A stretch of 58,620 bases of DNA from Limisphaerales bacterium (GCA_003134375.1 PLAY01000182.1:1-58620); one strand, 5' to 3'; shown: positions 26,600 to 54,723, counted from the stretch's first letter. The notes: generated from the letters alone by a model not told the origin. A program made the numbers and translations.

Positions 26600-26612
26600 A
26601 TTATTGCTTCAT

Positions 26613-26767
26613 GCATACCGCGCCCTCGTCGCGAGCGGCATACGTTTTTAGCCGCAGCAGCGGTGGTTTCCGTCTGCGGCTCGGCGGCGGCGTTGCGCTC
26701 CGACTTCGTTCCCGCCGTCTCTCCGTCTGCGCTCCACTGTTCCTGCCCGCCGACCGCAGACCGAAAC
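26613..26767. repeat. Structured inter-cassette repeat, copy R1 (3' arm of hairpin A plus full hairpin B)
   Basis: gtttccgtctgcggctcggcgg...cgccgaccgcagaccgaaac; homologous to R2-R5. Confidence 0.85.
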
Positions 26768-26847
26768 ATTTTCATAGAAAATAGGGGGGGTGTGATTGCG
26801 ACTGGCCAATGTTCGTTCATGCCGCTTTGATTTCCTTCGTGTTCATC

Positions 26848-26889
26848 CGCCTGCTCGACGAGCTGGCCTTCCGTGTAGGCGTGGGGCAT
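26848..26889 (-). pseudogene. hsdR: 5' fragment of type I restriction subunit hsdR (scar 3)
   Basis: Encodes MPHAYTEGQLVEQA, resembling HsdR N-termini; near-identical to 28874-28895. Confidence 0.6.
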
Positions 26890-26895
26890 GGCGTC

Positions 26896-27519
26896 TTAAC
26901 AGCTTGCGCTTGGAGATTCCCCATTACATGGCCGACTTCGGTCCTTTTCCGATGGAATCCCAACCTGCATGCGTCGGTATTTCGTCCAGATTTCATCTTT
27001 CAATGTCAGAAGTTCGTCGCGCAACTCCGCTGAATGAAAGCGCCGGTGTCCCTGCTTCAAGTTTTCGATTAGCCTTCGGAGGTTCGGGTATCGCTTCTTG
27101 AAATCGTCCGTGCCTTTCTGACCGAGGTATCGGAAGTCTTCGCTCATCAGCACAAAGGCGTTCTCAAAATGAAGGCCGACATCCTTCTTTCGCTGATCCG
27201 AGTCTAAGTGATACTTGGCAGAGAGTTTGCGCACCGGCTGGTCATTTTCTAGTCGGTAGATGCAGTCGGCCCGCCTCGCATACTCACGCTGCCGATAGTA
27301 GGCGTTTCCCTCCAGTTTGCCGGTCACTCGCGCAATATAGATCAAACGCTCCTCGTATCCCTTGCCGCCAAAACCGAAGATGAGCGACTCCTTCCCGGCT
27401 GTCCTGCGAATCTTGGGCTTGCAGATGGCGAGGCTAAGAAGGTTGCCGCTGACACAGGGCGCTCCACCGTTATCGGCAACCATTTTGTAAACGTATATGT
27501 CAGGTTCGGTCTTGCTCAT
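26896..27519 (-). CDS. Nucleotide-modification-associated domain 2 (Nmad2) protein
   Basis: YVYKMVADNGGAPCV...LSLAICKPKIRRTA; ATGA-coupled to the Nmad3 gene. Confidence 0.75.
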   Translation of the reverse strand: MSKTEPDIYVYKMVADNGGAPCVSGNLLSLAICKPKIRRTAGKESLIFGFGGKGYEERLIYIARVTGKLEGNAYYRQREYARRADCIYRLENDQPVRKLSAKYHLDSDQRKKDVGLHFENAFVLMSEDFRYLGQKGTDDFKKRYPNLRRLIENLKQGHRRFHSAELRDELLTLKDEIWTKYRRMQVGIPSEKDRSRPCNGESPSASC

Positions 27520-28223
27520 ACGGGATTGTTCTCCGCCACCAATTCAGGCTTCTGCGCGAGAAACCAGCGGTAAAAATTTGCGGTGTCGTGGAAGGCGGGC
27601 AACCTCACGCTGCGGTGAATGTAGCCGTCCTTGATGTCGAGGCCGCCCCAGGCGTCCAGCAGGTCGTTTCTCACGCGATAGACCCGGTCGCGCAATTCGC
27701 CGATGGGAATGCAACGGCGGAAACGGCCAGACACGCCGGGTTTCGCACGAACAACGATGTCCCCGTCGCCGGGAACACGGCGCGTGTGCGCGTTTTCCGC
27801 CCAGCGTGACTTCGGGACGGACTTGGCCGAAACAATTTCCTCGATCACATACAAACCGATGAGCGCGTAGATCAGCGGTCGCGCCGGACCGTCCACCGGA
27901 CGCAGAGCGGCGAAGAACGCCAGCAGGTCGCCAGCGGTCAGCAGCGAGGTGATGCGTTTTCCGCGCTGGCCTTGATCGCCGTAGGTGAGTTGTTCAAAAT
28001 CCGGGTCAAGATGTGTGGGCGTGCCGAGAAGTTCCGGCGGCAACTGCTCACCAAATCGTTTCACCACCGGAATGAACTCGTCGTAACGGCGGGACATGCC
28101 ATCACGTAGCGGCTTCGTGTCGGTGATTGTGACGTAGGAAAACTCACCAGAGGCCAACCGCATCGGCGCGTTCCAGCAGCCGTCCGTTGAATCAATGCCG
28201 ACTCTGACGAGCAACCCGTTCAT
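27516..28223 (-). CDS. Nucleotide-modification-associated domain 3 (Nmad3) protein; likely start ATG 28223
   Basis: LVRVGIDST..G, HLDPDF, TYGD, GDLLAFF, ENAH. Confidence 0.75.
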   Translation of the reverse strand: MNGLLVRVGIDSTDGCWNAPMRLASGEFSYVTITDTKPLRDGMSRRYDEFIPVVKRFGEQLPPELLGTPTHLDPDFEQLTYGDQGQRGKRITSLLTAGDLLAFFAALRPVDGPARPLIYALIGLYVIEEIVSAKSVPKSRWAENAHTRRVPGDGDIVVRAKPGVSGRFRRCIPIGELRDRVYRVRNDLLDAWGGLDIKDGYIHRSVRLPAFHDTANFYRWFLAQKPELVAENNPV

Positions 28224-28309
28224 CCTCGCCCTCCGTTCCAGCCAAGCTCCGCGAACAACCCGATGGCGGATTGCTCGACAAGCTGGTCTTCGGTTTGGGT
28301 GTGGTGCAT
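28220..28309 (-). pseudogene. hsdR: 5' fragment of hsdR (scar 2); 29-aa mini-ORF coupled to Nmad3
   Basis: Translates MHHTQTEDQLVEQSAIGLFAELGWNGGRG*; its stop overlaps the Nmad3 ATG. Confidence 0.7.
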
Positions 28310-28335
28310 GGCGGCTTCTGGACGGCTTTATTTCT

Positions 28336-28812
28336 TCAACGGTTGGTGGTCGGAAGTGCTGCTGGAGCGGAGATTGCGGGCTTCGCATCTTTGTCTTTAG
28401 TGCTTAGCCAAACCGCGTAACTGGAAACATACCCCGTCACCAGCCCGATGATGATGCCGGTGACGATGCCACTGATCCTGCTCTTCCGCGTTGCCCGGAA
28501 TAGCAGCCGTGCAAATGATTCTTCGGAAACCTTCAGTTGATGGTCAGCAGTCGCCTTATCTTGTTCCAAGGCGGCTATTTCTTTTCGGAGTTGGTCCACC
28601 TGATTCTTACTTGTGCTTGCATCGGCCTGAAGTTCCCCAACGGCCGCGATAGCTGCTTCCAAGTCTGCCTTGATTTTGCCCAGTCGAGCAATGCGCTCAT
28701 CAACAGATTCCGCACTCTGGAAGTCTGCGAGCGAAACGCTGATACCAGCTACCGAGAGCGTCATATTTTTGACAGCCGCGGAGATTACCTGCTTCACATT
28801 CTTTGTATCCAT
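28336..28812 (-). CDS. Small coiled-coil protein with a C-terminal TM helix
   Basis: AAAGGA RBS; heptad region; ISGIVTGIIIGLVTGYVSSYAVWL. Confidence 0.65.
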   Translation of the reverse strand: MDTKNVKQVISAAVKNMTLSVAGISVSLADFQSAESVDERIARLGKIKADLEAAIAAVGELQADASTSKNQVDQLRKEIAALEQDKATADHQLKVSEESFARLLFRATRKSRISGIVTGIIIGLVTGYVSSYAVWLSTKDKDAKPAISAPAALPTTNR

Positions 28813-28854
28813 ATCCTTTTGATCGATTTCATCGGGTTAACGGCGTGCGACGCC

Positions 28855-28892
28855 TTGCTAAACAATTTGGTTACGGTGTAGGCGTGGGGCAT
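28855..28892 (-). pseudogene. hsdR: Degenerate 5' fragment of hsdR (scar 1)
   Basis: atgccccacgcctacacc (MPHAYT) followed by a frameshifted match to the other two scars. Confidence 0.55.
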
Positions 28893-28902
28893 GGCATTGT
28901 GA

Positions 28903-30861
28903 TTATTGGTAGCCTGCCGCGCTCCAGTTCGACCCGTGAAGTGCAGCGGGCGCTTGCGGTCCAAGTTCATGGAGGAACTGACAAGCGACCGTGTTGCCGT
29001 GTTGCGCGTTGCCACCTCGAAGCACCGCTCCAATCTGGTGGGACATAGCGCGGGGAATACTCGCGACGGAAGACACCACCAATACCTCCTTTGCTCGCGT
29101 GAGTGCGACGTAGAAAACACGCCTTTGCTCCTGAAGGTGCGCGGCCTGCTCTGCTGGCGGAAGGTCATTGTCCACAAAAGGAATCAGGCCGTGAATACAG
29201 CCGACAATGATGGTGACTCGGCTGGTCAAGCCCTTCGACTTGTGCAGGCTCATTATCCTTACGAAGTCACCTTCGGCGGGCATTTCTGGCTGTGTAATTT
29301 CAGTCCGGAGCAAATCAAGCAAGCCTTCAGCATCCTCAATAGCGTCAACCTTGCCGGTCACCAATTCCCGGATTGGGTCGGCCCACGCAGCACCGGTGGG
29401 GAACAGGTCGCCAAACAGGTCGGTGATACCAAGTTGGTTTAGGCGGTTCACCTCGGTTTGCAAATCTTGGTAACGGGTTGTGAGTTGATTCACGCTATCC
29501 AATTGAAGCTGTCCTGCCGCGACTTGAGCCAAAACCTCGGCGGGCGCGCGGCCGTCCTGCTCGCAGTGGTCACGCAAGGTCGCATACTGACCGCGACGCC
29601 ACGAAGGGCTTCCGATTCCTAGCCAGTAACGCAAGGCCACGCGGTCCTCGGGATCACTCAGGAGCTGGAGCTTGGTCATCGCGACTTGCGCCTCTTCAGG
29701 CACAAGGAGCTTGTCATTGTAAAAGCTGTGGGCAGTAATGCCGAAACCAGGGGCTGCCAAACGACGCTTGATTTCGTTGGCGATTAGCCGACGCGGTGAG
29801 AGCACAAGAATTTCTCCGGCAGTAAATCCTCGCTGAGTCACCAAGTGTTGAATGAAAGCAGCAATTCCGTCGGCCTCGGCGTTCAATGTCGGCCACTGGA
29901 CAACGCGAACCGTGGCCGGTCCAGGTTGTGGTTGCAGTGGGACGAGCCGGTGGTCAGTTCCCGGCGGATAGTTGCCCCGAATCACATTGTCCGACACCGT
30001 GACGATAAGTTCCCGACACCGCCAACACTCGTCGAGTTCATGGTCTTCTACGTTTTGGTGGCGATTGCCGAAATCTGTGATGCCTTCAGGATGAGCGTAG
30101 CGGAAGCGGTAGATTGATTGGTCAACATCTCCCACGATGGACAGATTCTTGCCCGCCGCCATGACGTCGATGAGTTCCTGTTCCGCTCGATTCAAGTCCT
30201 GATACTCATCGACCACGATGTGGTCGTATTGCTGCAAAGCAGGACTCGCGGGGTTGTCGCGTAAATACCGCAGGGCTTCGGGCACAAGCTCGCCAATGAG
30301 CATCCCCCGGTGAAATTGTAGCCAGTTGGTGAGCATGATGTGAAATTGCTGGTCGATTGGGTCAATTGGCCAGCCTGGCTGCTGGTGCTGCATCCGCGCC
30401 CAGTCGGCTTCAAACGCACGGATTCGCCGAGTCATCTCCCTTCGCGCGCCAAAGTTCCCAAGCGGCTGGAGGTCGGCGAGCAAAGGTTCGACTTCATAGC
30501 CGCTAACACCCTTGTTGTTAAAAGTGATTAGCCCTCGCGGAACGCGGCTAAGAAAGGCAAACACGTCGTTTCTCAGGAGAAGTTTGAAGCAGAAGGAATG
30601 CACCGTTCCTGCGGAGATGTCATCGCACCCCGGAACACCCATATTTTGAAGTTCGCGTTCGAGGTCGCGGGCTGCTGTGCGCGTGAAAGTAACGGCAAGG
30701 ATTCGTTCGGGGTCAATGCCATCAACCTCAATCAGTCGGGCAATGCGGCGCTTCATCGCGAAGCTTTTTCCCGTCCCTGGTCCGGCCATCACACGGATAC
30801 GCGGTGACGTGGATTCCGCAATTTGCAGATGCGCTCCTGTGAGGTCAGTGTTCCAACTCAT
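28903..30861 (-). CDS. UvrD/Rep superfamily I helicase; likely start ATG 30861
   Basis: AGPGTGKS, VDEYQD, VGDVDQSIYRFR, HKSKGL, YVALTRA; ATGA overlap with the upstream gene. Confidence 0.9.
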   Translation of the reverse strand: MSWNTDLTGAHLQIAESTSPRIRVMAGPGTGKSFAMKRRIARLIEVDGIDPERILAVTFTRTAARDLERELQNMGVPGCDDISAGTVHSFCFKLLLRNDVFAFLSRVPRGLITFNNKGVSGYEVEPLLADLQPLGNFGARREMTRRIRAFEADWARMQHQQPGWPIDPIDQQFHIMLTNWLQFHRGMLIGELVPEALRYLRDNPASPALQQYDHIVVDEYQDLNRAEQELIDVMAAGKNLSIVGDVDQSIYRFRYAHPEGITDFGNRHQNVEDHELDECWRCRELIVTVSDNVIRGNYPPGTDHRLVPLQPQPGPATVRVVQWPTLNAEADGIAAFIQHLVTQRGFTAGEILVLSPRRLIANEIKRRLAAPGFGITAHSFYNDKLLVPEEAQVAMTKLQLLSDPEDRVALRYWLGIGSPSWRRGQYATLRDHCEQDGRAPAEVLAQVAAGQLQLDSVNQLTTRYQDLQTEVNRLNQLGITDLFGDLFPTGAAWADPIRELVTGKVDAIEDAEGLLDLLRTEITQPEMPAEGDFVRIMSLHKSKGLTSRVTIIVGCIHGLIPFVDNDLPPAEQAAHLQEQRRVFYVALTRAKEVLVVSSVASIPRAMSHQIGAVLRGGNAQHGNTVACQFLHELGPQAPAALHGSNWSAAGYQ

Positions 30862-31679
30862 AATAATTCCAATCCCTTCGCCAGCTTGTGCCACGGGCCT
30901 TTCTTGCGTTCGCGGAGCTTGGCAATGAGTCGCACTTTGGTGACGGGGTCGAGTTGCTCCACGTCCTCGATGGTGCAGACGGCGAGGTCTGCGGGATAGC
31001 ACGAGAGCGAGCGGGTGTCGTCCCATGCGATGTGCTCCAGCCTTTCCCGAATGGGCAAACCGCGAAGCTCGACGAGCAATTTCTCCCGTGCCGATGCTCG
31101 GGCGTGCTGAATCTCTGCTTGTTCGGCATTCAGTCGAGCGGCCACCGCATTCTGGATTTGCCGCCGGTGCTCGCCTTCTGGTTTCTGGTTCGCCATGTCT
31201 TCCGCCACGCGGCGTTGGCGTCCCCACTCATCGGCGCACCAGCGGTCGAGTGCTTCGCGGCATTCCGCCCACGAACCGGCTGTTCGTTTGGTGCCCTCGA
31301 AGGCGTGCCGAATCTTCCGCATCGGGAACGGGATGTAGTCATTGTCGCTGTGGTCCACAATCCACGCGGCCAGCTCCATCGCCCCGACACGGTCGCAGTC
31401 CTCCATTGTCCGGTAGGCGCTCTTGATAGCGGATGCCGAACCGCCTGACTTCGTCAACCGCGCTGCCTCAAGGTGAACTACCGCCCGGACCACGGCGCAC
31501 GCATCGGCCCACGGAATATCCCGCAGCCACTCGAAATCCTGGAACGGATGAATGCTGGCGACGAAGGCGTTCGCTTTCAGTGCGCCCAGAAGTTCGCCGA
31601 GCCTTGCCTCGCCATCGGCGCATTGGCCCAAAGCAATGAGCTTTTCCAAAGTCAGCTGGTCTGGTCGTTGGCTGCTCAT
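30858..31679 (-). CDS. Hypothetical helical protein, 273 aa
   Basis: ATGA overlaps at both ends; no recognised motif. Confidence 0.7.
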   Translation of the reverse strand: MSSQRPDQLTLEKLIALGQCADGEARLGELLGALKANAFVASIHPFQDFEWLRDIPWADACAVVRAVVHLEAARLTKSGGSASAIKSAYRTMEDCDRVGAMELAAWIVDHSDNDYIPFPMRKIRHAFEGTKRTAGSWAECREALDRWCADEWGRQRRVAEDMANQKPEGEHRRQIQNAVAARLNAEQAEIQHARASAREKLLVELRGLPIRERLEHIAWDDTRSLSCYPADLAVCTIEDVEQLDPVTKVRLIAKLRERKKGPWHKLAKGLELL

Positions 31680-32473
31680 TTCGTTTCCCGGTGCGTCTCG
31701 AAAAGGAAGACGGCCAGCGTGGAAGCCGCGCCGACTGCCAGCTTTGCGTGCCGCGCACTAAGGCCCTTGGAACTTCCATCCTTGCCGTGGCCCGTCCCAT
31801 AAAGGCCACGTAGCTCTGCGAGTCCGTTGCCAATTGTTCCGAGATTGCTCAAGAGCCGCTTTATTACGTCCGCACCGCGCGCCGCCTCCGGGATACCTTC
31901 CGGGACAAGTTTCAATTCCCTCAGCGTTTCCTTTGTGAGCGTTGATACATCAGGCGTTCCGGTCACGGGCTTGCCGCGCTCGGCGAGGATTGTCTTGCAG
32001 CATGTCTCGATGAGTTCCTTGGCAGTTCCGATGGCGAGACTTGGGTCGCTCTCTACGGACGCCTCCAACCGCCGAATCTGCTCGGCGAGATGATTCGCGT
32101 TCAGAACTTTTGCGTGTTCTTTGAGCGGGCTAAGGCTCGGCCCGCCAGCAAGAAGCCCAGTTGCAATGTGTCGGCATTTCTCGGCACGAGCTTTTGCTTC
32201 GGCGTCCGGCGTGAGGTTGAGAGTTGCCTCGTAATCGACCAAAGCAAGGATGAGCTTCCCCACCATGTAATCGGACTCGATCTTCCAAAATGTGCGGACC
32301 TTGTTGGCTTTGGAAGTTCCTCCCGCTGTGTATTTCTCGTGATGAATGTCCCGGTCAACAGCCTCGAAAACAAACTCTCCGAAAGTGCGGTCGGAAAATT
32401 TGAGAACGTAGCCGCCCTCCATTTGGAAGTGCTTTTCGAGAATGCGCCGGTCTGTCATTGAGAGAGCGCTCAT
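31676..32473 (-). CDS. Abortive infection family protein (AbiJ-like N-terminus, Abi_C domain)
   Basis: MEGGYVLKFSDRTF, SKANKVRTFW, DPSLAIGTAKELIETCCKTIL, ELRGLYGTGHG. Confidence 0.85.
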   Translation of the reverse strand: MSALSMTDRRILEKHFQMEGGYVLKFSDRTFGEFVFEAVDRDIHHEKYTAGGTSKANKVRTFWKIESDYMVGKLILALVDYEATLNLTPDAEAKARAEKCRHIATGLLAGGPSLSPLKEHAKVLNANHLAEQIRRLEASVESDPSLAIGTAKELIETCCKTILAERGKPVTGTPDVSTLTKETLRELKLVPEGIPEAARGADVIKRLLSNLGTIGNGLAELRGLYGTGHGKDGSSKGLSARHAKLAVGAASTLAVFLFETHRETK

Positions 32474-32610
32474 GCGGCCTCCGTTTCGAGTTTCACCTGT
32501 CCCGTCAGCAGACGTGGCAGCAGCAGGTCGCGCGTCCGGCGGCGTCCCAGAGGCGTGTTCACGACCGTCTCCGTGGCGGCATCATTTTCCGTTGAGGCAA
32601 ACCGTTGCAT
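32470..32610 (-). pseudogene. Fused remnant of hsdM 5' end and hsdS 3' end (type I RM deletion scar)
   Basis: MQRFASTENDAATET.. then RLWDAA in a shifted frame (HsdM-like start), joined over cgccg to RRTRDLLLPRLLTGQVKL (typical HsdS C-terminus). Confidence 0.6.
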
Positions 32611-32794
32611 AATCTGTATATCAGGCGCGCGTTGCGCGGAAGGGTATCTCAAAGCGTTCCACTGGCAAAGCAAAGAAGGAATGTGTCGGCGACACAGAAT
32701 TCCTCGTGTCACCCACGCAAAATGAGAAAGATCAACTCATGCCGCAATTCGAGCGTTACATCGCCATTTGATATAGTTTGCCCGGATACGCCGC

Positions 32795-33036
32795 CGTGAC
32801 CAACGCACGGTTTGCTACGCTTCACGGGCTGCCCGTCGCCCCATCCCCTCTCGACGACGCCCGTTCCGCTTCTCAAACCATGCGCTCGTCACGAGCGGGC
32901 ATCCGCAAAGTGCCGTCATGAGCGGCGGGCTTCCGTCTGTGGCTCGGCGGCGGGGTTGCGCTCCGGCTACGATTCGCCAAACGCATCTCTCCGCGCTCCG
33001 CTCCACTTTCCACGCTCACCGACCACAGACCGAAGC
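32795..33036. repeat. Structured inter-cassette repeat, copy R2 (full length)
   Basis: cgtgaccaacgcacggtttg...gtcacg, then gcttccgtctgtgg...ccacagaccgaagc. Confidence 0.9.
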
Positions 33037-33077
33037 TAAAGTCCGAACTCAATGTGGGGTGAAAATTGGCTTGATGT

Positions 33078-33107
33078 TGTCACAAAAACTAGGCAGTGTT
33101 TGTGACA
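33078..33107. promoter_or_regulatory. Inverted-repeat operator upstream of the AbiEi-like gene
   Basis: TGTCACAAA-12 nt-TTTGTGACA ending 8 nt before the ATG. AbiEi proteins are known to autorepress through promoter inverted repeats. Confidence 0.7.
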
Positions 33108-33114
33108 GTAATGA

Positions 33115-33726
33115 ATGAAAACACCAGCCCAACCCGTTGACGTTTCGATACTCCGGTTCATGCGGTCAAACCGGGGCGCTTCAGTATTCTCGCCCAGGAA
33201 CTTTGACGGATTGGGCAGCCCAGACGCCATCAGGCAGACGCTAAGCCGGCTGGTTAAAGCGGGCAAAATTCGCCGGATTCGCCGAGGACTCTATGATTTG
33301 CCGCGCCAGCATCCCATCATCGGCCAGACCGCGCCGGACATCATGGCAACCGTCCGCGCGTTGATGGAAGGCAGTCACGCGCAGTGGCAGTTCACCGGCG
33401 CTTACGCAGCAAACGCACTTGGCTTGTCGGACCAGGTGCCGGCCAAGATTGTCATCCTCACGGACGGCGCCCCGCGCCGGGTATCATTGGGGAAGTTGAC
33501 ACTCTTGTTCCACCGCGCCTCGCCGCGCAATCTGTTCGGAGCAGGCAAGCCAGCAGGCTTAGTCATTCAAGCGATTCGCCATCTACGAAATGACCCGGAC
33601 ATTTCCCGGCACATCGTGCGATTAAGAAAACGGTTGGACACAAAGACAAAATCAGATTTGAAATCGTTCGTGCCAAAAACGCCCGTGTGGATGCGGCCCA
33701 TCTTGCAGCAGATCATTCAGGACTAA
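33115..33726 (+). CDS. AbiEi/DUF6088-family wHTH transcriptional regulator (type IV TA antitoxin-like)
   Basis: AIRQTLSRLVKAGKIRRIRRGLY, GAYAANALGLSDQVP. Confidence 0.85.
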   Translation: MKTPAQPVDVSILRFMRSNRGASVFSPRNFDGLGSPDAIRQTLSRLVKAGKIRRIRRGLYDLPRQHPIIGQTAPDIMATVRALMEGSHAQWQFTGAYAANALGLSDQVPAKIVILTDGAPRRVSLGKLTLLFHRASPRNLFGAGKPAGLVIQAIRHLRNDPDISRHIVRLRKRLDTKTKSDLKSFVPKTPVWMRPILQQIIQD

Positions 33727-33729
33727 TAT

Positions 33730-36108: not shown

Positions 36109-36121
36109 CCTAAACAACGCC

Positions 36122-40491: not shown

Positions 40492-40514
40492 CCATGATTT
40501 TCAAGGACTAGCGA

Positions 40515-42131: not shown

Positions 42132-42316
42132 GTTCAGGCCGCTCGCTCCCCCCCCCGCTCGGCGCAACTTGTGATTACAGCCCGTGAAACGCCCGATGCC
42201 GGTTGATTGGGCACGAAAATACACAACCGCGCGCAACTCGCCCAGCCAAGGATTGCCTTAATTTGTGAAAAAAGAGTGAGACTTCGGAATTTGCTCCATT
42301 CGTTTTTTACTGCCGC

Positions 42317-42550
42317 CGTGACCAACGCGCGGTTTGCTTCGCTCCACGGGCTGACGGTCGTCCCTGTCTCCCTCTCGACCACGCCCGTTCCACTCCGCAA
42401 ACCGCGCGCTCGTCACGAGCTGCAATAAATTAGCCGCATCAGCGGCTGGCTTCCGTCTGCGGCTCGGCGGCGGCGTTGCGCTCCGGCTCCGTTCCCGCCG
42501 TCTCTCCGCCTACGCTCCACTGTTTCCGCTCGCCGACCGCAGACCGAAGC
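42317..42550. repeat. Structured inter-cassette repeat, copy R3 (full length)
   Basis: cgtgaccaacgcgcggtttgc...gcaaaccgcgcgctcgtcacg; gcttccgtctgcgg...ccgcagaccgaagc. Confidence 0.9.
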
Positions 42551-42593
42551 CTTTTCAGACAAAACTACAAATCTGTGCGCCGAACATTTTCAA

Positions 42594-44117: not shown

Positions 44118-44119
44118 GT

Positions 44120-45256
44120 TTAGTTCGCTTTGTAGAGCCAGGACAACATTTCATCGTAATAGGTGTGGAAACCGTAACGGTCTTTGTTCCACGCTGCCCC
44201 GTTTCCGCTATACGGGTGGATGCTGATTTGCCGCCATACGCGACCACCGAATGTTTCAGCCCCCTGAACGCCACCCGGCACGCGACCCAAAAGTGGCGAG
44301 CCTTCCGGCAGATAGGCGTTATCAATAAATGCCGCCGGATAACCGCCCGGCACTTTTACCAGCACGTCGGAACTGCCCGCCGGATGTCCGGGCCGCGTTG
44401 GGATTCCCACATATACAACCGCAGGCACTGGCTCGGTGAGCAGCGTGACATTCACTCCATTTTCGCGGAGAAGCGCAATTTCACGCTCAACCCGGCTCGA
44501 TTGGAAGCCCGCGTTCACGTCGTTGCGGATGACCTTGAATTTTTCGCATTCGTGAATTTTGATTTTTTCCGCCAGACCGACGGGGATTTCCTTTTCGTCA
44601 TGCTCGCCTTCAAGTCTGGAAACCGTCGTATTTTGCGGCTTGTCGTAAACGAGCGCGGCAATTTCCAAACCGGTCATTTCGGGTTTCACTCCCTGCGTTG
44701 AGTTGAACTTCTTTTTGTTGACGATGATCGTCAGCAGGTCGGTCCGTTTCCGCGAACGGAACACTTCACCGTCCCCAAGATTCACGGATGCGTCATCGCC
44801 GATGATTTCATCTGTCGGCGACTCGAAATCTTTGAGGAGTTCAACTTCATCAGGCAGATTGAACAAATCTCGAATCGAACGTCCGTTTTGGTCCGGCTTC
44901 ACGACGATTTCCCAGCGGTCGTCAACATCAATGACGCGCTTGGCTGGGGCTTCGCAGCCAGGTCGCGTCTCAACGTCACATGCGGGCACGGAATAAAATA
45001 CCGTGCCCTCGGCCAAATCCGCCGTCCCATTCTCCGGCATAATCACGTCATGCGGGGAGTTATGGTCGCGAATCAGCGCGTGGTCTTTTGGAATGTTCGC
45101 CTGCTCCTTGATGGCGGCCACCTTGACTAAGCGGCCCGGCATCGGGAAAAGTTGATCATTCACGACAATCGCTCGTTTTGGCGCAGGGCGACAATCTTGC
45201 GCGTGTTTTGCCCCGGCATCGCCGAGGCCCATTTCTGGTTCAGAACTTGCGTTCAT
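44120..45256 (-). CDS. Triple multi-ubiquitin domain protein fused to a prokaryotic E2-family-E domain (BubAB-like)
   Basis: Three beta-grasp-like repeats ending in DVNAG, followed by LVKVPGGYP...WRQISIH. Confidence 0.75.
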   Translation of the reverse strand: MNASSEPEMGLGDAGAKHAQDCRPAPKRAIVVNDQLFPMPGRLVKVAAIKEQANIPKDHALIRDHNSPHDVIMPENGTADLAEGTVFYSVPACDVETRPGCEAPAKRVIDVDDRWEIVVKPDQNGRSIRDLFNLPDEVELLKDFESPTDEIIGDDASVNLGDGEVFRSRKRTDLLTIIVNKKKFNSTQGVKPEMTGLEIAALVYDKPQNTTVSRLEGEHDEKEIPVGLAEKIKIHECEKFKVIRNDVNAGFQSSRVEREIALLRENGVNVTLLTEPVPAVVYVGIPTRPGHPAGSSDVLVKVPGGYPAAFIDNAYLPEGSPLLGRVPGGVQGAETFGGRVWRQISIHPYSGNGAAWNKDRYGFHTYYDEMLSWLYKAN

Positions 45257-45456
45257 ATTATTTTTTGCAAAAACCCTGACGACGCGCCATGTTCTTGCGG
45301 GAACTTCGTTCCGGCATCACAAGACGCCAACAACGTAGTTCGCTATACAAGTAGTCCTCGCTATTGCGAACGTCAACTATTTTCTTTGCGACTTTTTCGT
45401 GCTTGCAAGTATAGCCTGAATTTGGGAAGAATTACCCGACATGCAGAAATCCATTT

Positions 45457-45861
45457 ATGAATACCGTCGGTGACAGAATTAGAGCGCGCCGGCAGGAACT
45501 TGCCTGGACGCAGGAACAGCTCGCGGAGAAAGCGGGGATCAGCAAGGGCTTTCTTTCCGATTTGGAGACGGGCACACGAAATGTCAGTGCCGAATACTTG
45601 CTTAAAATAGCTCAAGCACTAAACGTCACGTTGGACTTTCTGATGAAAGGTGACTCCAGCAAACCCAGCACGAGTGAGGTTCAGATACCAGCGAGACTGT
45701 CAGACACAGCGAAACAGAAAAATCTGACTTTCGCGCAAACACTAATGTTGCTTGATATGCGACTTCAAATAAAAGCGCACCGCAGCAACACTCAAAGCGA
45801 CGACCTTGAAAAATTCGATTGGGAACGATTTTACGAGGCCGTGAAACATTTCCTAAAATGA
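45457..45861 (+). CDS. XRE-family HTH regulator (CapH-like)
   Basis: WTQEQLAEKAGISKGFLSDLETG; divergent from the ubiquitin-like operon. Confidence 0.85.
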   Translation: MNTVGDRIRARRQELAWTQEQLAEKAGISKGFLSDLETGTRNVSAEYLLKIAQALNVTLDFLMKGDSSKPSTSEVQIPARLSDTAKQKNLTFAQTLMLLDMRLQIKAHRSNTQSDDLEKFDWERFYEAVKHFLK

Positions 45862-46907
45862 ACACGTTAAGTCTCGACCCTAAAATCATCGGCATGGCCA
45901 GAGCCTTGAAGCTCGACGGGAACGATTCCGTTCAAGTCATCATGGGCTTTTGCCGCAAGCGCATAACCAAAATGCTGAAGTCGGCGGCGTCCGTCCAATC
46001 AATCTGGGATTTTGAAACAATTGTTTGCACGCATCTGAATTTGGTTATCCACGAAATTTGGAACGACGATGAATTGCGCGATTTCAGTCAGCGTTACGCA
46101 ATGGACGAAGGCGACCCAAAGTTTGCGGCTTTGGAAATGGAATTGGAGGGCGACGACACTTATGGTGTCCTTTATCAACGCAATGCGCTGAATGAGGCCG
46201 GGGAATATCAGTATGTTGCGTTTGTGGATTGTCGCGGTGATAAGAAGCACAAGCGTTTTTTCACTCGCTGGCATGAAATTGCCCACTGTTTGACGACCTA
46301 CGAACAATTCGAGTTCCCGTTCAAGCGAACGAACGCCGCCGACATCGAGAAAGACCCCGTTGAAAAACTGATGGACATGATTGCCGGCGATTTGGGATTC
46401 CTTGAACCTCTTTTTCGTCCGGTGCTTCATGGCGAACTTGGTAACAACCGATTGACCTTCGACACGGTTGAAGGTGTTCGGAATCGGTTCTGTCCAGATG
46501 CCAGTTTTCAGGCGACGCTCAATGCTTGCGTAGCCCATGCACCCACGCCGATAATTTTAATTGAAGCTGGCCTTGGCTTGAAACAAAGCCAAAAACGCGA
46601 ACTGCGTGATACCCAACTTCAACTGCTTCCAACCCGCCCGCCGAAACCATGCTTGCGCGTGCTGCGGTCTATGTCAAACGGCGCAGCGCGAAAAACCGGA
46701 TTTCTGGTTCACAAGAATTGGCGTGTTCCAGGCTTTTCTGTGATTGCGAAGGTTTTTAATTCCGATCTCGAAATCAATGACAAGGCGGTGGAAAACCTCG
46801 GCTCATGGAAATCTTCTGACGGAAGCTCACTTCAATATGTGAATGTTTTAATTCAGGCGCGCAAAATTCAGGGCAGAGTTTTTGCGATCATCAGTTTGAC
46901 GGAGTGA
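45858..46907 (+). CDS. ImmA/IrrE-family Zn metallopeptidase (CapP-like); likely start ATG 45858
   Basis: RFFTRWHEIAH and downstream EKLMD; ATGA overlap with the HTH gene. Confidence 0.8.
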   Translation: MNTLSLDPKIIGMARALKLDGNDSVQVIMGFCRKRITKMLKSAASVQSIWDFETIVCTHLNLVIHEIWNDDELRDFSQRYAMDEGDPKFAALEMELEGDDTYGVLYQRNALNEAGEYQYVAFVDCRGDKKHKRFFTRWHEIAHCLTTYEQFEFPFKRTNAADIEKDPVEKLMDMIAGDLGFLEPLFRPVLHGELGNNRLTFDTVEGVRNRFCPDASFQATLNACVAHAPTPIILIEAGLGLKQSQKRELRDTQLQLLPTRPPKPCLRVLRSMSNGAARKTGFLVHKNWRVPGFSVIAKVFNSDLEINDKAVENLGSWKSSDGSSLQYVNVLIQARKIQGRVFAIISLTE

Positions 46908-46950
46908 TTTAATCTTCAACTTCGCCGCTTATTTCCACTTTTTAGTCCCA

Positions 46951-47199
46951 TCGTGACCAACGCGCGGTTTGCTTCGCTTCAGGGCTGCCGGTCGGCCCTG
47001 TCTCCCTCTCGACCACGCCCGTTCCGCTTCGCAAACCGCGCGCTCGTCACGAGCGGCATTTGCGATGGGCCGCAAGACGCGGCGGGCTTCCGTCTGCGGC
47101 TCGGCGGCGGGGTTGCGCTCCGGCTTCGTTCCGCTAGGCGCTCCTCTCCGCTCTCCGCTCCACTTTCCCCGCTCGCCGACCGCAGACCGAAGCCGCGTC
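46951..47199. repeat. Structured inter-cassette repeat, copy R4 (full length)
   Basis: tcgtgac/gtcacga, cgcgcggtttgc/gcaaaccgcgcg and ggtcg/cgacc stems; gcttccgtctgcgg...ccgcagaccgaagc. Confidence 0.9.
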
Positions 47200-47214
47200 A
47201 AACGATGTGAAAGT

Positions 47215-47243
47215 TTGCGGCATCTCAATATGCCCAATATAAT
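47215..47243 (+). promoter_or_regulatory. Sigma70-like promoter, probably producing a leaderless mRNA
   Basis: TTGCGG-17-TATAAT, with the GTG start 7 nt downstream of the -10 box. Confidence 0.7.
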
Positions 47244-47249
47244 CAAACC

Positions 47250-48722
47250 GTGCTAAAGCTCACCGCCCAAGACTTTCATCGCCGATATGCTCCTACCGAG
47301 TGCGATCTGCGCATCTTTCTGCGAGAACGCGGCGTCGAGGAATCGCCACCCTCGGAATTTGAGCAAGTCCTCATGCGCCTGGGCCAGCGTTATGAAGCAA
47401 AACATCTCGCCACATTTCCTGAAGCTATTGATCTGCGGTCGTTCGAGTCAGACAAGCGGTTTGAACAAACCGTGGCACTCGTAAAAGATGGCTGTCCGGT
47501 CTTGTATCAGCCGGTTTTGAAAGTTCAAAAACCGCTCGACGATGTTGAAAGCGAATTCATTGGCGAGCCTGATTTTCTTCTACGGGAGAGAGATGGTTAC
47601 ATCATCCGCGATGTCAAAATGGCGCGGCGAGTTGACGAGGGACATCATCCAGAAATCGTGTTTCAATTGCAGTTCTACGGCTGGCTTTACGAACAGGTTT
47701 TTGGCTTGCCTCCGATCAGGCTCGAAGCCCTGAATGGTCAAGGTGACATCGTTCCTATTCCGTCTAACCATCAAGCCGTGCTCGCTGAATTACGGGCGTT
47801 GATTCGCCTGAAACGATTGTCGCAAGAACCATACGAACCTGTTGGGTGGAGCAAATGCATCGGCTGCGGGTTTCGTGACCATTGCTGGCCGAAGGCGGTA
47901 ACAGCGAAGGACGTTGCCCTGGTCTATGAGATTGATCAAAGCCTTGCTGCGGAATTGCATGAACACGGAGCAGCAAGCATCTCGCAACTGGTGGAGCATT
48001 TCAATGCAGACAGCTTGAGCGGATTAAAACGCCCGTGGGGGAAAAAGTTCCAAAAAGTCGGCAAAAGAGCCGCTATGATTTTGCAGCGGGCGCGCGTGAT
48101 GTTGTCGGGACAGGAGGTTGTTCTTCATCCGCCAATCATCCCGCATCATGAACATTACGTCATGTTCGACTTGGAGGGGATGCCCCCGCACCTGGATGAA
48201 CTCGACAAAATCTATTTGTGGGGAACGCAGGTGTTTGGAAAAACCCAAGGCAAGTTCATGCCTGCCGTATCTGGTTTTGGAGACAACGGCGACCACGAAG
48301 GCTGGAAACAATTCCTGACAAATGCCCAATCCATTTTCCAGCAGTTCGGCGACATTCCGTTCATTCACTGGCACCATTATGAAAAAACCCATTTGGACGA
48401 CTATGTGGAACGCTACGGCGACGCCGAAGGGATCGCCGCCCGTGTCCGCCGGAATCTGCTCGACCTGCTGCCCATTGCACGGGACAGCGTGTTGCTGCCG
48501 TTGTCGAGTTACAGCCTGAAGGAAGTTGAAAAATACGTAGGGTTCAAGCGCAGCCAGACCGAATACGGCGGTTCATGGTCCATTGCCAAATACATCGAAG
48601 CGACCGAAACCCTCGATGAAAATTCCCGCAACAAATTGATTGGCGAAATTTTAATTTACAATCAGGAAGACCTGGCGGCGACTTGGGCAGTCTTTGAATG
48701 GCTGCGGGCGAAGGCATCTTGA
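47250..48722 (+). CDS. TM0106-family RecB/Cas4-like nuclease with C-terminal RNase H-like domain
   Basis: GEPDFL..DVK..QLQFY, CIGCGFRDHC, FDLEG, YSLKEVE, YNQEDL. Confidence 0.85.
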   Translation: MLKLTAQDFHRRYAPTECDLRIFLRERGVEESPPSEFEQVLMRLGQRYEAKHLATFPEAIDLRSFESDKRFEQTVALVKDGCPVLYQPVLKVQKPLDDVESEFIGEPDFLLRERDGYIIRDVKMARRVDEGHHPEIVFQLQFYGWLYEQVFGLPPIRLEALNGQGDIVPIPSNHQAVLAELRALIRLKRLSQEPYEPVGWSKCIGCGFRDHCWPKAVTAKDVALVYEIDQSLAAELHEHGAASISQLVEHFNADSLSGLKRPWGKKFQKVGKRAAMILQRARVMLSGQEVVLHPPIIPHHEHYVMFDLEGMPPHLDELDKIYLWGTQVFGKTQGKFMPAVSGFGDNGDHEGWKQFLTNAQSIFQQFGDIPFIHWHHYEKTHLDDYVERYGDAEGIAARVRRNLLDLLPIARDSVLLPLSSYSLKEVEKYVGFKRSQTEYGGSWSIAKYIEATETLDENSRNKLIGEILIYNQEDLAATWAVFEWLRAKAS

Positions 48723-48853
48723 TGAACACCTCTGAAACACCACACGCAGGCATGTTATGCTTTTTGAAGAGAAGACGGCTGGTGGAAGTCGAAATCGGCG
48801 CAAAGCACGAGCTGCGGTCTTGCCAGACAGCAAACAAGTAAGTTCAATTGAGT

Positions 48854-50566
48854 ATGCTTCTTTATCACCTTTGCATCGAGCGATTCCGAGGAATCCAAAC
48901 ACTCGACTGGCACGTTGGCGGGCGGATCGTTTGTTTGGTAGGACCGGGAGACTCCACCAAGACCGCAGTTTTAGACGCGATTGAAATCGTTCTGTTTCCC
49001 CGTCCGTTTTTTCAATTCACAGATGCTGATTTTTTTAATGGCGATATTTCAAATCCGCTCCGCATTGAAGCGACCGTCGGCGACTTGCCGCCAGACCTGA
49101 TCAAAGAGGAGAAGTTTGGGCTGTGGAAACGTGGTTACGACGGACAGATTAGAGACGAACCATTAGCTGGCTGTCAGGACGTTCTCACTCTTCGTTTGAC
49201 GGTTGATCCGAATCTCGAACCAACATGGGAGATTATCAAAGATGCAATGGGTGAACCGAAGCTAATTTCCGCCAAAGACAGGGAAAAGCTGGGCATGGTG
49301 CGCTTGGGTGATGAAATCGAACGTCATCTCACTTGGGCACGTGGGTCGGCTTTGAATCGCCTGACTGAAGACCACGATGCGACTGGCAAGATGTTTGTTA
49401 CCGCAGCAAGAGAGGCGCGGAAGACTGTGGCTGCGGCTGAACTGGCCGAGTTGAACAAAGCGGCCAAGCAAGCAAGTGAGGCAGCCTCGTTGTTTGGCGC
49501 AAATATCGGCGATACTAAGGCTGGCCTTGATCCCATTGCATTGTCACTTGGCAGTTCCGCTCTTGGGTTGCAGACAGGCGCAATTCCCGTGAGACAATAT
49601 GGTCTCGGAACACGGCGTCTGGCCGCGCTGGCGATACAACAGCAAGGCGCTGGAAAGAATCAAATTCTTCTGACCGACGAGATTGAACACGCCCTCGAAC
49701 CACACCGGATACGCCACCTCTTGAAATTATTCGTGACGGCTGGCGGAGCGGAAGAACGAAGCACCGGACAAGTTATCTTTTCCACCCACTCGCCCACGCC
49801 AATCATGGCCCTTGGCGCGAGCAAACTTCGCATCGTGCGTTCCACGAATGGGAAAACAACCATAACTCCTGTTCCAACGAGTTTGCAAGCGGTCGTCCGA
49901 TCCCAAAGCCTCGCTTTCTTGGCGCGCAAGGTGATTGTTTGTGAAGGAAAAACAGAAGAAGCCGTCGTTCGCAGTTTGGAATCAGTTTGGGGGGAACGGC
50001 ATCAGCATAAGTCTTACGCATTACTCGGGGTCGTGCCCGTCGTGTCCAGCACCGGAGGTGGTTCGAACGCTCATCCAGCAGCACAAAGTCTCCGGTCGCT
50101 GAATTTCAATACGGCTTTGTTCTGTGACACTGACGTTGCGACAACACCCTCAAGCGCCGAGCTTCGCCAAAATGGCGTTTCGGTGTTTGAGTGGGACGGA
50201 AAAATGAGCATTGAGGAGAGAATCGCTCAAGACTTGCCCCTGACAGATTTGCAAAAGCTTTTGATGCTCGTGTTTGAAACCAAAGACGACGACGGTAAAA
50301 GAAGTTTGCTACAGAGTCTTGCCGACCGCGCCAAGAAACCGGAAGCCGCGACCGTCGGTTCAAATTTGCAGTTGTGGCTGCAAGGCGGTCTGTCAGAGCC
50401 GGATTTGCGATTGGCCTTGGGGAAATGTTCAAAGGCTGATGGGTGGTTCAAGAATCTCAACGATGGCCAATTGCTCGGAAAGGTGATTGGCGAAACCTTG
50501 CCAAAAATTCCTAACAGCAGCTTGGCTAAAACATTGAACGGACTCGAAGCTTGGATTTATGGCTGA
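48854..50566 (+). CDS. gajA: Gabija GajA-like OLD-family ABC ATPase-TOPRIM nuclease
   Basis: IERFRGI, GPGDSTKT, DEIEHALEPH, STHS, VCEGKTE, DTD. Confidence 0.8.
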   Translation: MLLYHLCIERFRGIQTLDWHVGGRIVCLVGPGDSTKTAVLDAIEIVLFPRPFFQFTDADFFNGDISNPLRIEATVGDLPPDLIKEEKFGLWKRGYDGQIRDEPLAGCQDVLTLRLTVDPNLEPTWEIIKDAMGEPKLISAKDREKLGMVRLGDEIERHLTWARGSALNRLTEDHDATGKMFVTAAREARKTVAAAELAELNKAAKQASEAASLFGANIGDTKAGLDPIALSLGSSALGLQTGAIPVRQYGLGTRRLAALAIQQQGAGKNQILLTDEIEHALEPHRIRHLLKLFVTAGGAEERSTGQVIFSTHSPTPIMALGASKLRIVRSTNGKTTITPVPTSLQAVVRSQSLAFLARKVIVCEGKTEEAVVRSLESVWGERHQHKSYALLGVVPVVSSTGGGSNAHPAAQSLRSLNFNTALFCDTDVATTPSSAELRQNGVSVFEWDGKMSIEERIAQDLPLTDLQKLLMLVFETKDDDGKRSLLQSLADRAKKPEAATVGSNLQLWLQGGLSEPDLRLALGKCSKADGWFKNLNDGQLLGKVIGETLPKIPNSSLAKTLNGLEAWIYG

Positions 50567-51971
50567 GTCCCTGGCAGTCCACCTAGCGAACCACAAATGC
50601 GCCTCAGTGGTCGCGCCTGCCGGTTGTGGAAAAACCTATCTGATTTCCGAGTCAGTCTCACATACTAAGGGTTGCCAACTCGTCCTTACGCACAGCCATG
50701 CGGGCAAAAGTGCAATCACAACACGCATGCGTGACATGCGCATTCCAGTGGACCGCTACCGCGTGGAGACTCTCGACTCCCTGGCGCTGAATTACGCGCG
50801 GGCCTTTCCAAAGCTGGGGGAAGTGACGAAGGAATCATTGGAGTCTTTCAATTGGCCAGCGATTTGCCGAGGCGCAGCCAAAGCACTCGGAAAGACGCCT
50901 GTGCAGAATGTTATCCAAGCCACCTACACAGGCATCTTTGTGGATGAGTATCAAGACTGCGACAAACCTCAGCATGAGCTTGTTGTTTCCCTTGCGCAGC
51001 TTTTGCCGTGCAGGATTTTAGGTGATCCGTTACAGGCGGTTTTCAGACCACTGCATAAAGGAGAAGCCCTTTCGTGGCCGGACGCAATCAGTGCGTTCCC
51101 CCAAATCGGAACTCTTTCGACACCGCACCGGTGGAAGAATTGCAATCCCATTCTTGGTGAGTGGCTGCTGCATGTTCGGCAAAGCATCGAAAAAGGCGAC
51201 AGTGTTCCACTCCGCAATCATGGTGTTCCCGGATTAAGTGTAATCCAAACGAGCGACTACGTTCGCAAATTGACCGAGTGCCACAAGTTTCTTGATCAGG
51301 AGGAAGGTCGTATTGTGATCCTGCGGAAGTTCCCGAACGAGTGCCATGCGCTCGCTTCGAGACTTCAAAATCGTTGCGCTGTCTTTGAGGACATTCAATT
51401 GGGGGAACTCGAAAAACCAGCGAATGAAATCTTCAGACTCACCGGGCTTGATAGGACGAAAGCTGTAAGTAAATTCGCGCATCGGTGGCTCACAAACATC
51501 CCCGGCGCAGTAAAGAATGCTTGCGACCGATTGCTCACAGGAAAAGACCCCAGAACGAAGGACCCGCAAGCAATCGCCATAATCGCAAGGCTCAAGCAGG
51601 TGACGGAATCGAATGAACTTCTCGTCGTTGATGAAGCTTTGGCGCAATACGAAAAGTGCAAACCCACCTTCAAAAGTATTGAAGTCTGGAAAGGATTGCG
51701 GAAAGCGATTCAGGCTTACGATCCAAGCGAGAAGCTCACTCTGCTACAAACTGTTCAACGCCAGCGGGACACTCTTCGGCGTCTCGGTCGCAAACTGCCA
51801 ACCCGAAGCATCGCAACCCCGCTTCTTGTAAAAGGTTTGGAATGTGAGCACGCGCTGGTTTTCGATCTCGACACCATCGAATCCAACGAGAGCCTGTATG
51901 TGTCGCTGACAAGAGCATCCGCTACGCTCACCTTGCTTACAGAAAATGACTGCATTGCTCCCTTCGTTTGA
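50559..51971 (+). CDS. gajB: Gabija GajB-like UvrD helicase
   Basis: APAGCGKT, VDEYQDC, LGDPLQ, KGLE, YVSLTRA; overlaps gajA. Confidence 0.8.
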   Translation: MAESLAVHLANHKCASVVAPAGCGKTYLISESVSHTKGCQLVLTHSHAGKSAITTRMRDMRIPVDRYRVETLDSLALNYARAFPKLGEVTKESLESFNWPAICRGAAKALGKTPVQNVIQATYTGIFVDEYQDCDKPQHELVVSLAQLLPCRILGDPLQAVFRPLHKGEALSWPDAISAFPQIGTLSTPHRWKNCNPILGEWLLHVRQSIEKGDSVPLRNHGVPGLSVIQTSDYVRKLTECHKFLDQEEGRIVILRKFPNECHALASRLQNRCAVFEDIQLGELEKPANEIFRLTGLDRTKAVSKFAHRWLTNIPGAVKNACDRLLTGKDPRTKDPQAIAIIARLKQVTESNELLVVDEALAQYEKCKPTFKSIEVWKGLRKAIQAYDPSEKLTLLQTVQRQRDTLRRLGRKLPTRSIATPLLVKGLECEHALVFDLDTIESNESLYVSLTRASATLTLLTENDCIAPFV

Positions 51972-51986
51972 TAATTTGACTCCTCT

Positions 51987-52085
51987 TGCGGCTCGGCGGC
52001 GACGTTACCCTCCGGCTGCGATTCGCTAAACGCTTCTCTCCGCCTCCGCTCCACTTCCTTCGCTCGCCGACCGCAGACCGAAGCC
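51987..52085. repeat. Structured inter-cassette repeat, copy R5 (hairpin B only, 5'-truncated)
   Basis: tgcggctcggcggcg...ctcgccgaccgcagaccgaagcc, starting 16 nt after the gajB stop. Confidence 0.85.
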
Positions 52086-52120
52086 AGCTAATCCGCATAC
52101 GCGGGCAAGGTGCTGAATTC

Positions 52121-53286: not shown

Positions 53287-53287
53287 G

Positions 53288-54688: not shown

Positions 54689-54723
54689 ACCTGCACCGCA
54701 CCAACCCCCAACCGCCCACGAGC

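Follow-up and report, generated by a model that had tools for sequence, protein, structure and literature searches.

The 58,620-nt window analysed here is the entire contig C48 of the source genome G000, a Limisphaerales bacterium (GCA_003134375.1, PLAY01000182.1). It opens at genes for a ParA-like ATPase and a coupling protein and closes within secretion genes, and the region 3987-52086 is therefore cargo. In this cargo, both nhmmer and a covariance model detect five direct copies of an intergenic repeat (R1 to R5), all on the + strand, which confirms the five same-orientation copies described in an earlier note on this DNA. We found that the repeat is a real, conserved structure of three hairpins (A, B and C) maintained by compensatory changes, and that it is a boundary and a point of repeated reshuffling of cargo modules, most of them devoted to anti-phage defence. 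The five copies are the following.

R1, 26613-26769, + strand: 5′-truncated copy that covers about 86-250 of the model and retains the 3′ arm of hairpin A, followed by B and C; 112 bits with the covariance model
R2, 32790-33040, + strand: full copy with hairpins A, B and C; hairpin C is of type II, with a 6-nt insert
R3, 42312-42555, + strand: full copy with A at 42312-42423, B at 42432-42447 and C at 42448-42551; reference row of the family alignments
R4, 46947-47199, + strand: full copy
R5, 51986-52086, + strand: 5′-truncated copy, mostly hairpin C alone, at the border between cargo and backbone

The full copies (R2, R3 and R4) are about 245 nt long. R1 lacks approximately the first 85 model positions and begins 13 nt past the stop of the open reading frame (ORF) at 25844-26599; R5 lacks approximately the first 148 and begins 14 nt past the GajB stop (51971). 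The left arm is absent from the window sequence upstream of both truncated copies. For R1 and R5 alike, the truncation coincides with the end of the upstream module, and an imprecise insertion into a copy is indicated in each case. A covariance model of hairpins B and C, that is, of the 3′ half of the repeat (15 pairs were retained by the automatic consensus), gave with filters off exactly five matches in the window, at 78-132 bits, and the next match scored 18 bits. The G+C content of the repeat is 66-71%, compared with 57% for the genome, and because the window copies differ by insertions or deletions of 1, 2, 3 and 6 nt, the repeat is not protein-coding. No Rfam 15 family matched the window at gathering thresholds, and a search with R3 at E values up to 5 returned a single chance-level match of 14.5 bits. 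The claim that the copies divide the defence island holds for the right half of the cargo (26.6-52.1 kb), which is the only part that they punctuate; the left 22 kb (3987-26600) is without a copy by nhmmer or covariance model, despite the presence of several defence-type genes, and not every module border is marked. The unmarked borders count against an integron-like cassette system, considered below.

Folding of a full copy gave three hairpins, and not the two that had been proposed before. Hairpin A is long and bent (about 112 nt), B is short (about 16 nt) and C is again long (about 104 nt). Relative to shuffled sequence, the folding z-scores were −9.2 (+ strand) and −8.0 (− strand) as DNA, and −9.5 and −8.1, respectively, as RNA. 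Copies were gathered from the same genome, from its relatives and, by a pattern search, from single genomes representing each species, and the structure alignment contains the 93 distinct copies with near-full model coverage and at least 100 bits, leaving out truncated copies and a diverged subfamily adjacent to MORN genes. With the R3 fold as the structure, and with only the 64 robust pairs considered, 92.2% of the cells were paired, a value that dropped to 30-40% if the partners were slid by 1-3 columns. Double changes were observed at 35 of the 64 stem pairs (219 cells), so covariation is strong, and none of 500 shuffles reached any of the five measures. The three compensatory changes quoted in the earlier note are all real: two of them recur throughout the family, at the gtctgC/T pair (CG 59, UA 5, UG 8) and at the G/Cgtcg pair (GC 55, CG 30), and the third, gTttc/gaaAc in R1, is seen in the window alignment. 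Two diverged subfamilies that at first appeared to be partial keep hairpin A, with further paired changes in the basal stem and the same CAA/CTC internal loop. Across the family, the copies are 80-95% identical in sequence.

The flanks were compared for 90 distinct full copies with 400-nt flanks, drawn from the 93 (4005 pairs). The upstream flank alone was shared by 30 pairs and the downstream flank alone by 35, but no pair shared both; this one-sided sharing indicates that the copies mark exchange junctions. Outside this set, L016 and L017, which represent two elements of one genome and belong to the MORN-adjacent diverged subfamily, share both flanks; in no case did two different species of the sample do so. 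In pairwise comparisons of loci, homology extends for hundreds to thousands of bases on one side and ends mostly 0-7 nt, and at most 26 nt, from the other end of the repeat; that is, the breaks in synteny between related elements fall at the ends of the repeat, as the earlier note had expected. For example, R2 together with 640 nt upstream of it (32153-33044) matches two other genomes at 84% and 80% identity, up to a point 4 nt past R2. The flanks fall into 70 distinct upstream and 70 distinct downstream groups, conservation is at background within 1-2 bases of either end, and whole modules recur beside copies in different elements. For 36 of 42 copies the closest relative was found in another genome, which argues that the arrays were not made by local duplication. 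A locus composed of integrase, repeat and cargo (L012) resembles a repeat-to-repeat deletion of the fuller L015. From this evidence, we consider it highly probable that the copies are exchange junctions of cargo gene content. At the junction where L041 was compared with L028 and L034, homology is limited to the coding regions, the intergenic DNA is unrelated, and the expected repeat is absent from one side of the shared module; as evidence for a precise loss of the repeat this junction carries no information. Four sequencing runs were used as contigs only, and their DNA contigs break at copies; copy-to-copy joints in these contigs (32954 to 52003, and 42501 to 47144) were rejected as deletions or circles, given that they extend for 30 letters or fewer on one side and reflect repeat k-mer effects. 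An apparent fall in depth over R4, and stretches lacking RNA cover, were likewise given no weight.

Integrative conjugative elements of a single, widespread family, from one order of soil and peat Verrucomicrobiota, carry the repeat. By nhmmer, G000 contains 11 copies and one fragment: C48 has five, C70 three, and C54, C66, C158 and C186 one each. According to gene clustering and Pfam, every one of them adjoins relaxase, integrase, MORN, Clp or VirB4 genes; the 11-12 copies are all on contigs with conjugation or integrase genes and are not scattered over the genome. The order of the element is tyrosine integrase, full repeat, small PUR-like gene, variable genes, TrwC-type relaxase on the opposite strand, ParA, TrwB-type coupling protein, cargo, MORN, ClpB-like ATPase on the opposite strand, and VirB2/VirB4-type secretion. 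Contig C70 represents a second element of the same kind, with its three copies within the cargo. The recurrent sites of the repeat are after the integrase gene (17 nt past its stop in two elements), at the border between the cargo and the MORN/Clp/secretion genes, and between cargo modules. As tRNA genes lie outside the integrase, the repeat has an internal position and does not represent the attachment site of the element. In one locus (L019, G022:C9, 10372-11760), a cluster of five tRNA genes starts in or beside a truncated copy, and two more tRNA genes and an integrase are found about 3.5 kb further on. Relative to the backbone, the repeat does not vary in orientation: it shares a strand with VirB4 (13/13), MORN (11/11), DUF4141 (6/6), ParA (5/5) and the coupling protein (4/4), and lies on the strand opposite to Clp (16/16) and to the relaxase (7/8).

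In a first draw, the repeat was detected in 12 of 24 other genomes of the genus and in 1 of 16 genomes of other families; across the order, with only two candidates scored per genome, 74 of 401 genomes were positive, as were 47 of 165 genera. A phylum-wide draw of 400 other genomes, which contained only two genomes of the order, gave no repeat. When 150 genomes of the class were searched with the covariance model, 3 of 17 genomes of one family outside the order were positive. Of 118 pattern matches from the species-genome scan, nhmmer confirmed 80 as true copies, with record titles that are mostly Verrucomicrobiota; a small number of weak matches of full length come from bins assigned to other phyla and may be diverged relatives or mis-binned contigs. 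A blastn search with R3 found no match in 72,556 PLSDB plasmids. The small protein with a PUR domain (PurA-like, binding single-stranded DNA or RNA; L003:10796-11140) is present on the elements as additional paralogues, which in every case (4/4) directly follow the integrase-proximal repeat. As a repeat-specific partner, this gene was rejected: it is common in the order (324 of 401 genomes, including the unpublished G334), and such near-universal presence is uninformative about the repeat.

All 38 adjacent pairs of copies are co-oriented, with gaps from 67 nt to 12.5 kb (median 2.8 kb); this set includes a few places counted twice, and elsewhere exact duplicates were removed by sequence. The densest array (L035, G079:C556, 8781-15351) has six co-oriented copies in 6.5 kb, separated by 133, 68, 2166, 2434 and 332 nt, and several of its units are without an ORF of at least 90 amino acids. 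The gene upstream of the copy is co-oriented with it in 72 of 112 cases, with a median distance of 30 nt from stop to repeat. Among 103 copies classified by their neighbours, 43 are in the tandem + arrangement, 26 in the convergent, 18 in the tandem − and 16 in the divergent, and at least one gene 3′ end adjoins 87 of them.

Three lines of sequence evidence favour the minus strand as the folded one, and the earlier proposal to this effect thereby gains support. Within the 64 robust pairs we counted 175 C-A cells, equivalent to G-U or G-T when read on the minus strand, and 90 G-T cells; the C-A cells prevail at 34 pairs versus 15. The unpaired bases of the + strand are 42% C and 30% T (the whole + strand is 40% C and 28% G), so that the loops of the minus strand are purine-rich. 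In addition, two copies from different genomes are split by 1.97-kb group II introns, with reverse transcriptase and maturase domains, that are 83% identical to each other:

L036 (G150:C73), 7329-9300, minus strand of the repeat: group II intron (RVT_1, GIIM, RF02001, RF00029)
L069, 1261-3229, minus strand of the repeat: group II intron (RVT_1, GIIM, RF02001, RF00029)

Both introns are inserted in the distal part of hairpin C, 4-5 nt apart, and the target sequence is intact. Targets that are single-stranded or form hairpins, among them terminators and attC sites, are preferred by group II introns that have no endonuclease domain. Relative to L036, the 5′ half of the L069 copy (about 58-1026) is inverted, which may be a real inversion or a mis-assembly.

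Confinement to conjugative elements, a fixed orientation, considerable length, multiple hairpins, conserved loops and signatures of a single strand make up the profile of a cis site on single-stranded nucleic acid. The folded minus strand would act as single-stranded nucleic acid, and its likeliest role would be exerted on single-stranded DNA during or after conjugative transfer, for instance in priming or in the loading of proteins, as at ssi/sso sites; the elements would then benefit from recombination as a side effect. We propose such a primary role on single-stranded DNA only tentatively, and judge its chances to be appreciably below even. The layered reading that best accommodates the data is a strand-specific structured cis element with a role on single-stranded DNA that doubles as a recombination anchor, which we place just short of an even chance; among the possibilities raised in the earlier note, it was the first alternative, a single-strand site that secondarily anchors homologous recombination, that fitted best.

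Regarding the exchange itself, it would occur mainly by homologous recombination between copies, each serving as a portable stretch of homology of about 245 bp. Two crossovers, one in each of two copies, would swap the intervening module, and an occasional imprecise insertion into a copy would import foreign DNA, as may have happened at R1 and R5. Among the 90 copies, pairs that share the upstream flank have a ratio of mismatches to background of about 0.4 in hairpin A, which climbs to 0.6-0.9 or more in hairpin C, and in pairs that share the downstream flank the ratio falls from about 0.65 to 0.3-0.5. This gradual decay of linkage, without a step, fits crossovers spread along the 245 bp, that is, homologous recombination or gene conversion. 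The gradient is suggestive of homologous exchange and is not a proof of it, as the pairs are related and the curve is an aggregate. On these sequence comparisons, an exchange that is mainly homologous appears somewhat better than an even proposition.

The nearest functional parallels are the initiation sites (ssi) and ssDNA promoters (Frpo) of conjugative plasmids, together with the single-strand origins (sso) of rolling-circle and conjugative elements. Sites of these types resemble the repeat in that they are found only on conjugative elements and are intergenic, up to a few hundred nt long, multi-hairpin, orientation-specific and often present more than once per element. One report (PMC11541004) gives 13,089 Frpo-like sites in 6,006 elements. 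In contrast to Frpo and ssi sites, the repeat matches no PLSDB plasmid; and whereas leading-region genes all use the transferred strand, the genes that flank the repeat point both ways. Frpo and ssi sites lie in fixed orientation on the transferred strand of the leading region; for the repeat, a fixed orientation relative to the backbone is what was observed. The repeat is not a member of the Frpo family.

Several observations weigh against the reading of a single-strand site that doubles as a homologous-recombination anchor. The excess of C-A cells could stem from selection for a C-rich, G-poor + sense RNA, and the intron clue consists of two insertions. Also unlike Frpo and ssi sites, the repeat has no −35/−10 elements in its stems: none of the nine promoter-like sites of 26000-45999 falls in R1-R3 (both strands), and a loose −35/−10 pattern was present in none of the 93 copies (+ strand scanned). 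A total of 16 of the 103 copies stand between divergent genes, and the location of 72 of 112 behind a co-oriented gene, at a median of 30 nt, also fits an RNA 3′-end element. The pairs that share a flank are not phylogenetically independent, and the linkage gradient is an aggregate. Homologous recombination alone leaves unexplained both the ends precise to about 1 nt against 70 + 70 unrelated flanks and the tandem copies 67-146 nt apart. Finally, by analogy with the arrangement of hairpin and relaxase gene in IncW and F plasmids, the layout found in these elements would make the + strand the transferred one, although most other gene orientations suggest that it is the minus strand. This layout consists of a covarying short hairpin followed by an A-rich stretch directly upstream of the start of the TrwC-type relaxase (L003, about 19290-19330; also L007, L011, L014 and L015), a candidate for the inverted repeat of oriT or for a translational operator. 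The repeat as oriT was rejected, since this candidate hairpin is unrelated to it and its 12-nt signature is confined to the copies.

The main rival of the single-strand reading is an element that acts at the RNA level, as a terminator or insulator (possibly Rho-dependent) and 3′-end stabiliser that shields the transfer genes from the cargo modules and from host read-through, with recombination as a secondary effect. The position of the copies agrees with it, since they commonly follow a co-oriented gene closely (72/112, median gap 30 nt), adjoin a gene 3′ end in 87 of 103 cases, and are located right behind the integrase gene and right ahead of the MORN and secretion genes. The composition of the + strand, C-rich and G-poor both overall (40% C, 28% G) and in the loops (42% C), and the high stability of the hairpins as RNA on either strand also agree with it. 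A terminator that insulates the element end is known for Tn916 (PMC11658703). The contigs of RNA libraries include one copy with its flanks (C70, 8049-8285), which is weak support, since carry-over of DNA is possible and contigs give no strand, ends or levels. On the other hand, the repeat is confined to the elements and in G000 is not found behind ordinary host genes; its 245 nt with conserved loop sequence exceed what a terminator needs; no consistent T-run follows hairpin C; and 16 of 103 copies lie between divergent genes. Moreover, C-A mismatches, which would be disruptive in a + sense RNA, are twice as frequent as G-U, and the introns are on the opposite strand. Taken together, these data make a primary role in RNA unlikely.

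The mechanism favoured in the earlier note was an integron-like but IntI-independent cassette system. Expressed in terms of the genes found here, folded minus-strand copies would be recognised by an enzyme of element or host, such as the neighbouring tyrosine integrase or the HUH relaxase, that excises and captures operon-sized defence modules. We found some likeness to attC sites and cassette arrays: co-oriented structured sites past the 3′ end of gene units, variable content, folding of one strand, a store of defence genes, and targeting by group II introns. Compatible with such a system are also the co-oriented arrays with spacings from 67 nt to 12.5 kb, near-empty units included; the ends sharp to about 1 nt against 70 + 70 unrelated flanks; the lack of any pair sharing both flanks among the 90 copies; the conserved internal loops of the hairpins; the full copy 17 nt past the tyrosine integrase gene in several elements, with three integrase clusters beside copies; and the similarity of L012 to a repeat-to-repeat deletion of L015. 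However, the linkage shows no step at a fixed position, as a single crossover point would require, and the truncated copies reflect imprecise events. A co-occurring recombinase was looked for, and none dedicated to the arrays was found: the arrays have no recombinase of their own, and the neighbouring integrases are of the ordinary element-end type, beside tRNA genes and in either orientation to the repeat. Many module borders have no copy, and the module shared by L041 with L028 and L034 is without the expected repeat on one side.

The structure of the repeat also differs from that of attC sites, which are single imperfect hairpins of about 55-140 nt with extrahelical bases, compared with three hairpins in about 245 nt. 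The attC core motifs are RYYYAAC at the 5′ end and GTTRRRY at the 3′ end; the first was found within the first 35 nt of 1 of the 93 copies and the second within the last 35 nt of none, in agreement with the absence of attC cores reported in the earlier note. Again unlike attC sites, the copies are 80-95% identical, have no adjacent IntI or attI, and delimit units that are multi-gene modules in both orientations. Two true intI genes are present in G000 (TIGR02249, 389 and 386 bits against a cut-off of 265), at C126:25632-26573 (−) and C60:584-1531 (−). Neither of these contigs contains a copy of the repeat, and a regular expression for attC-like pairs found none near either of the intI genes, on contigs that end close to intI and with which the cassette arrays were not assembled. 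Accretion through att sites was rejected as well, because the modules have no integrase, the tRNA genes are outside the integrase and the repeat is inside the element. A site-specific, integron-like mechanism is consequently not supported, and we regard it as quite improbable.

A selfish non-autonomous element, moved by a HUH-type transposase or relaxase with duplication-free insertion, like the palindromes derived from IS200/IS605 or the REPINs, would be consistent with the strand specificity of the repeat and with hairpins near both of its precise ends in spite of the absence of terminal inverted repeats and target duplication; Y1 transposase genes exist in G000, and the relaxase is a HUH enzyme (Pfam TrwC). 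Nevertheless, the eight Y1_Tnp matches of G000 are all on contigs without the repeat, no pair of filled and empty sites was seen, and there is no conserved target motif, base frequencies being at background from −6 upstream and +3 downstream, where a target sequence of the IS200/IS605 type was sought. The sharing of one flank and never both among the 90 copies is a signature of recombination and not of insertion, and nearest relatives in other genomes speak against local bursts. The REP/BIME/REPIN palindromes, BOX, Correia and comparable structured repeats of intergenic DNA are, like the repeat, extragenic, palindromic, modular (here A-B-C), often located just 3′ of genes and points of recombination and rearrangement. 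However, they are short units in tens to hundreds of copies over the chromosome, with REPINs tied to a flanked RAYT gene, whereas the repeat has 1-11 copies per genome and is limited to conjugative elements. We therefore give the selfish element very little credence. A miniature inverted-repeat transposable element, another alternative of the earlier note, is rejected: identical flanking k-mers (k = 3-8) are no commoner than in shuffles, so no target-site duplication is apparent, the ends are not mutual inverted copies, and no target motif was found.

The preferred reading, a structured single-strand site that also anchors recombination, has a partial parallel in the hotspots of SXT/R391-type elements, where homologous recombination in conserved flanks, which consist of backbone genes, swaps cargo, including defence genes, between related elements at fixed positions. 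In our case, a dedicated non-coding, structured unit of 245 nt gives the homology and subdivides the cargo into several modules that can be exchanged. We found no description of such an element in the literature on conjugative elements, defence islands and structured repeats, and it is apparently an undescribed structured intergenic repeat that acts as a recombination anchor. Whatever the repeat's own job, the comparative data indicate that portable homology within the cargo is used constantly by related elements, which bears on how defence islands are assembled and reshuffled. If the repeat is portable homology only, it would be a simple route to modular cargo in mobile elements; as a site with activity in single-strand priming or recombination, it would represent either a novel cassette system or a novel cis element of conjugation. 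To our knowledge, integrons are the only device known to store and shuffle defence genes via structured sites, and if the integron-like reading were true, the repeat would be an integron analogue for operon-sized units that spreads by conjugation. The repeat profile also locates these elements and their cargo borders in metagenomes.

The genes around the five copies in the window are arranged as follows.

1291-3835, + strand: left backbone, with a ParA-like ATPase, a small ORF and a TrwB/VirD4-type coupling protein (Pfam; the same gene clusters in related elements)
3987-26599, mixed strands: left cargo without repeats, with NACHT/HEAT, DUF499, DUF1156 methyltransferase, SNF2-NOV_C helicase, cNMP-binding-TIR and unknown proteins (Pfam)
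26896-32473, − strand: module R1-R2, with Nmad2, Nmad3, a UvrD/GajB-like helicase and an Abi_C/AbiJ-like protein (Pfam, PADLOC)
33115-42131, + strand: module R2-R3, with a DUF6088/AbiEi-like protein, Hsp70-TPR, a UvrD-like helicase, a DrmD-like SNF2 helicase (PADLOC DrmD, E 8.5e-249) and an unknown protein of 538 amino acids
42594-46907: module R3-R4, with a ThiF-type E1 and a multiubiquitin/E2-like protein (− strand), and a helix-turn-helix (HTH) regulator and an unknown protein of 362 amino acids (+ strand) (Pfam, PADLOC E1-E2; G+C 51.5%)
47250-51971, + strand: module R4-R5, with a PD-(D/E)XK + RNase H-like protein, GajA (7.9e-158) and GajB (3.6e-114), which form a Gabija system (PADLOC; G+C 51.8%)
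52423-58526, mixed strands: right backbone, with a MORN-repeat protein (+), a ClpB-like AAA_2 ATPase (−), a TrbC/VirB2-like pilin and a VirB4-like ATPase (Pfam)

The gene order of the right backbone also follows the last repeat on contig C70 and in at least 10 other genomes. The G+C content of the region 42555-51986 (E1/E2-like and HTH genes, Gabija), 51.5-51.8% versus 57% for the genome, suggests a recent import from a different background, and no close GajA was found in 350 other genomes of the order (E ≤ 1e-120). The operon at 33115-42131 shows an unusual pairing of a chaperone-like ATPase with DISARM-type helicases; a DUF1156 methyltransferase and a DUF499 gene are located 20 kb from it, in the repeat-free cargo. 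Also in this part, the gene at 20095-21024 encodes a cyclic-nucleotide-binding domain fused to a TIR effector domain of the CAP12/Pycsar type, and no cyclase was recognised adjacent to it. Upstream of the ParA-like gene (1291-1983), the sequence 542-826 contains a loose array of about 11 units with a 17-nt spacing that are 60-75% alike, of which TRF reports 727-784 only; this array may represent the partition or operator iterons of the element.

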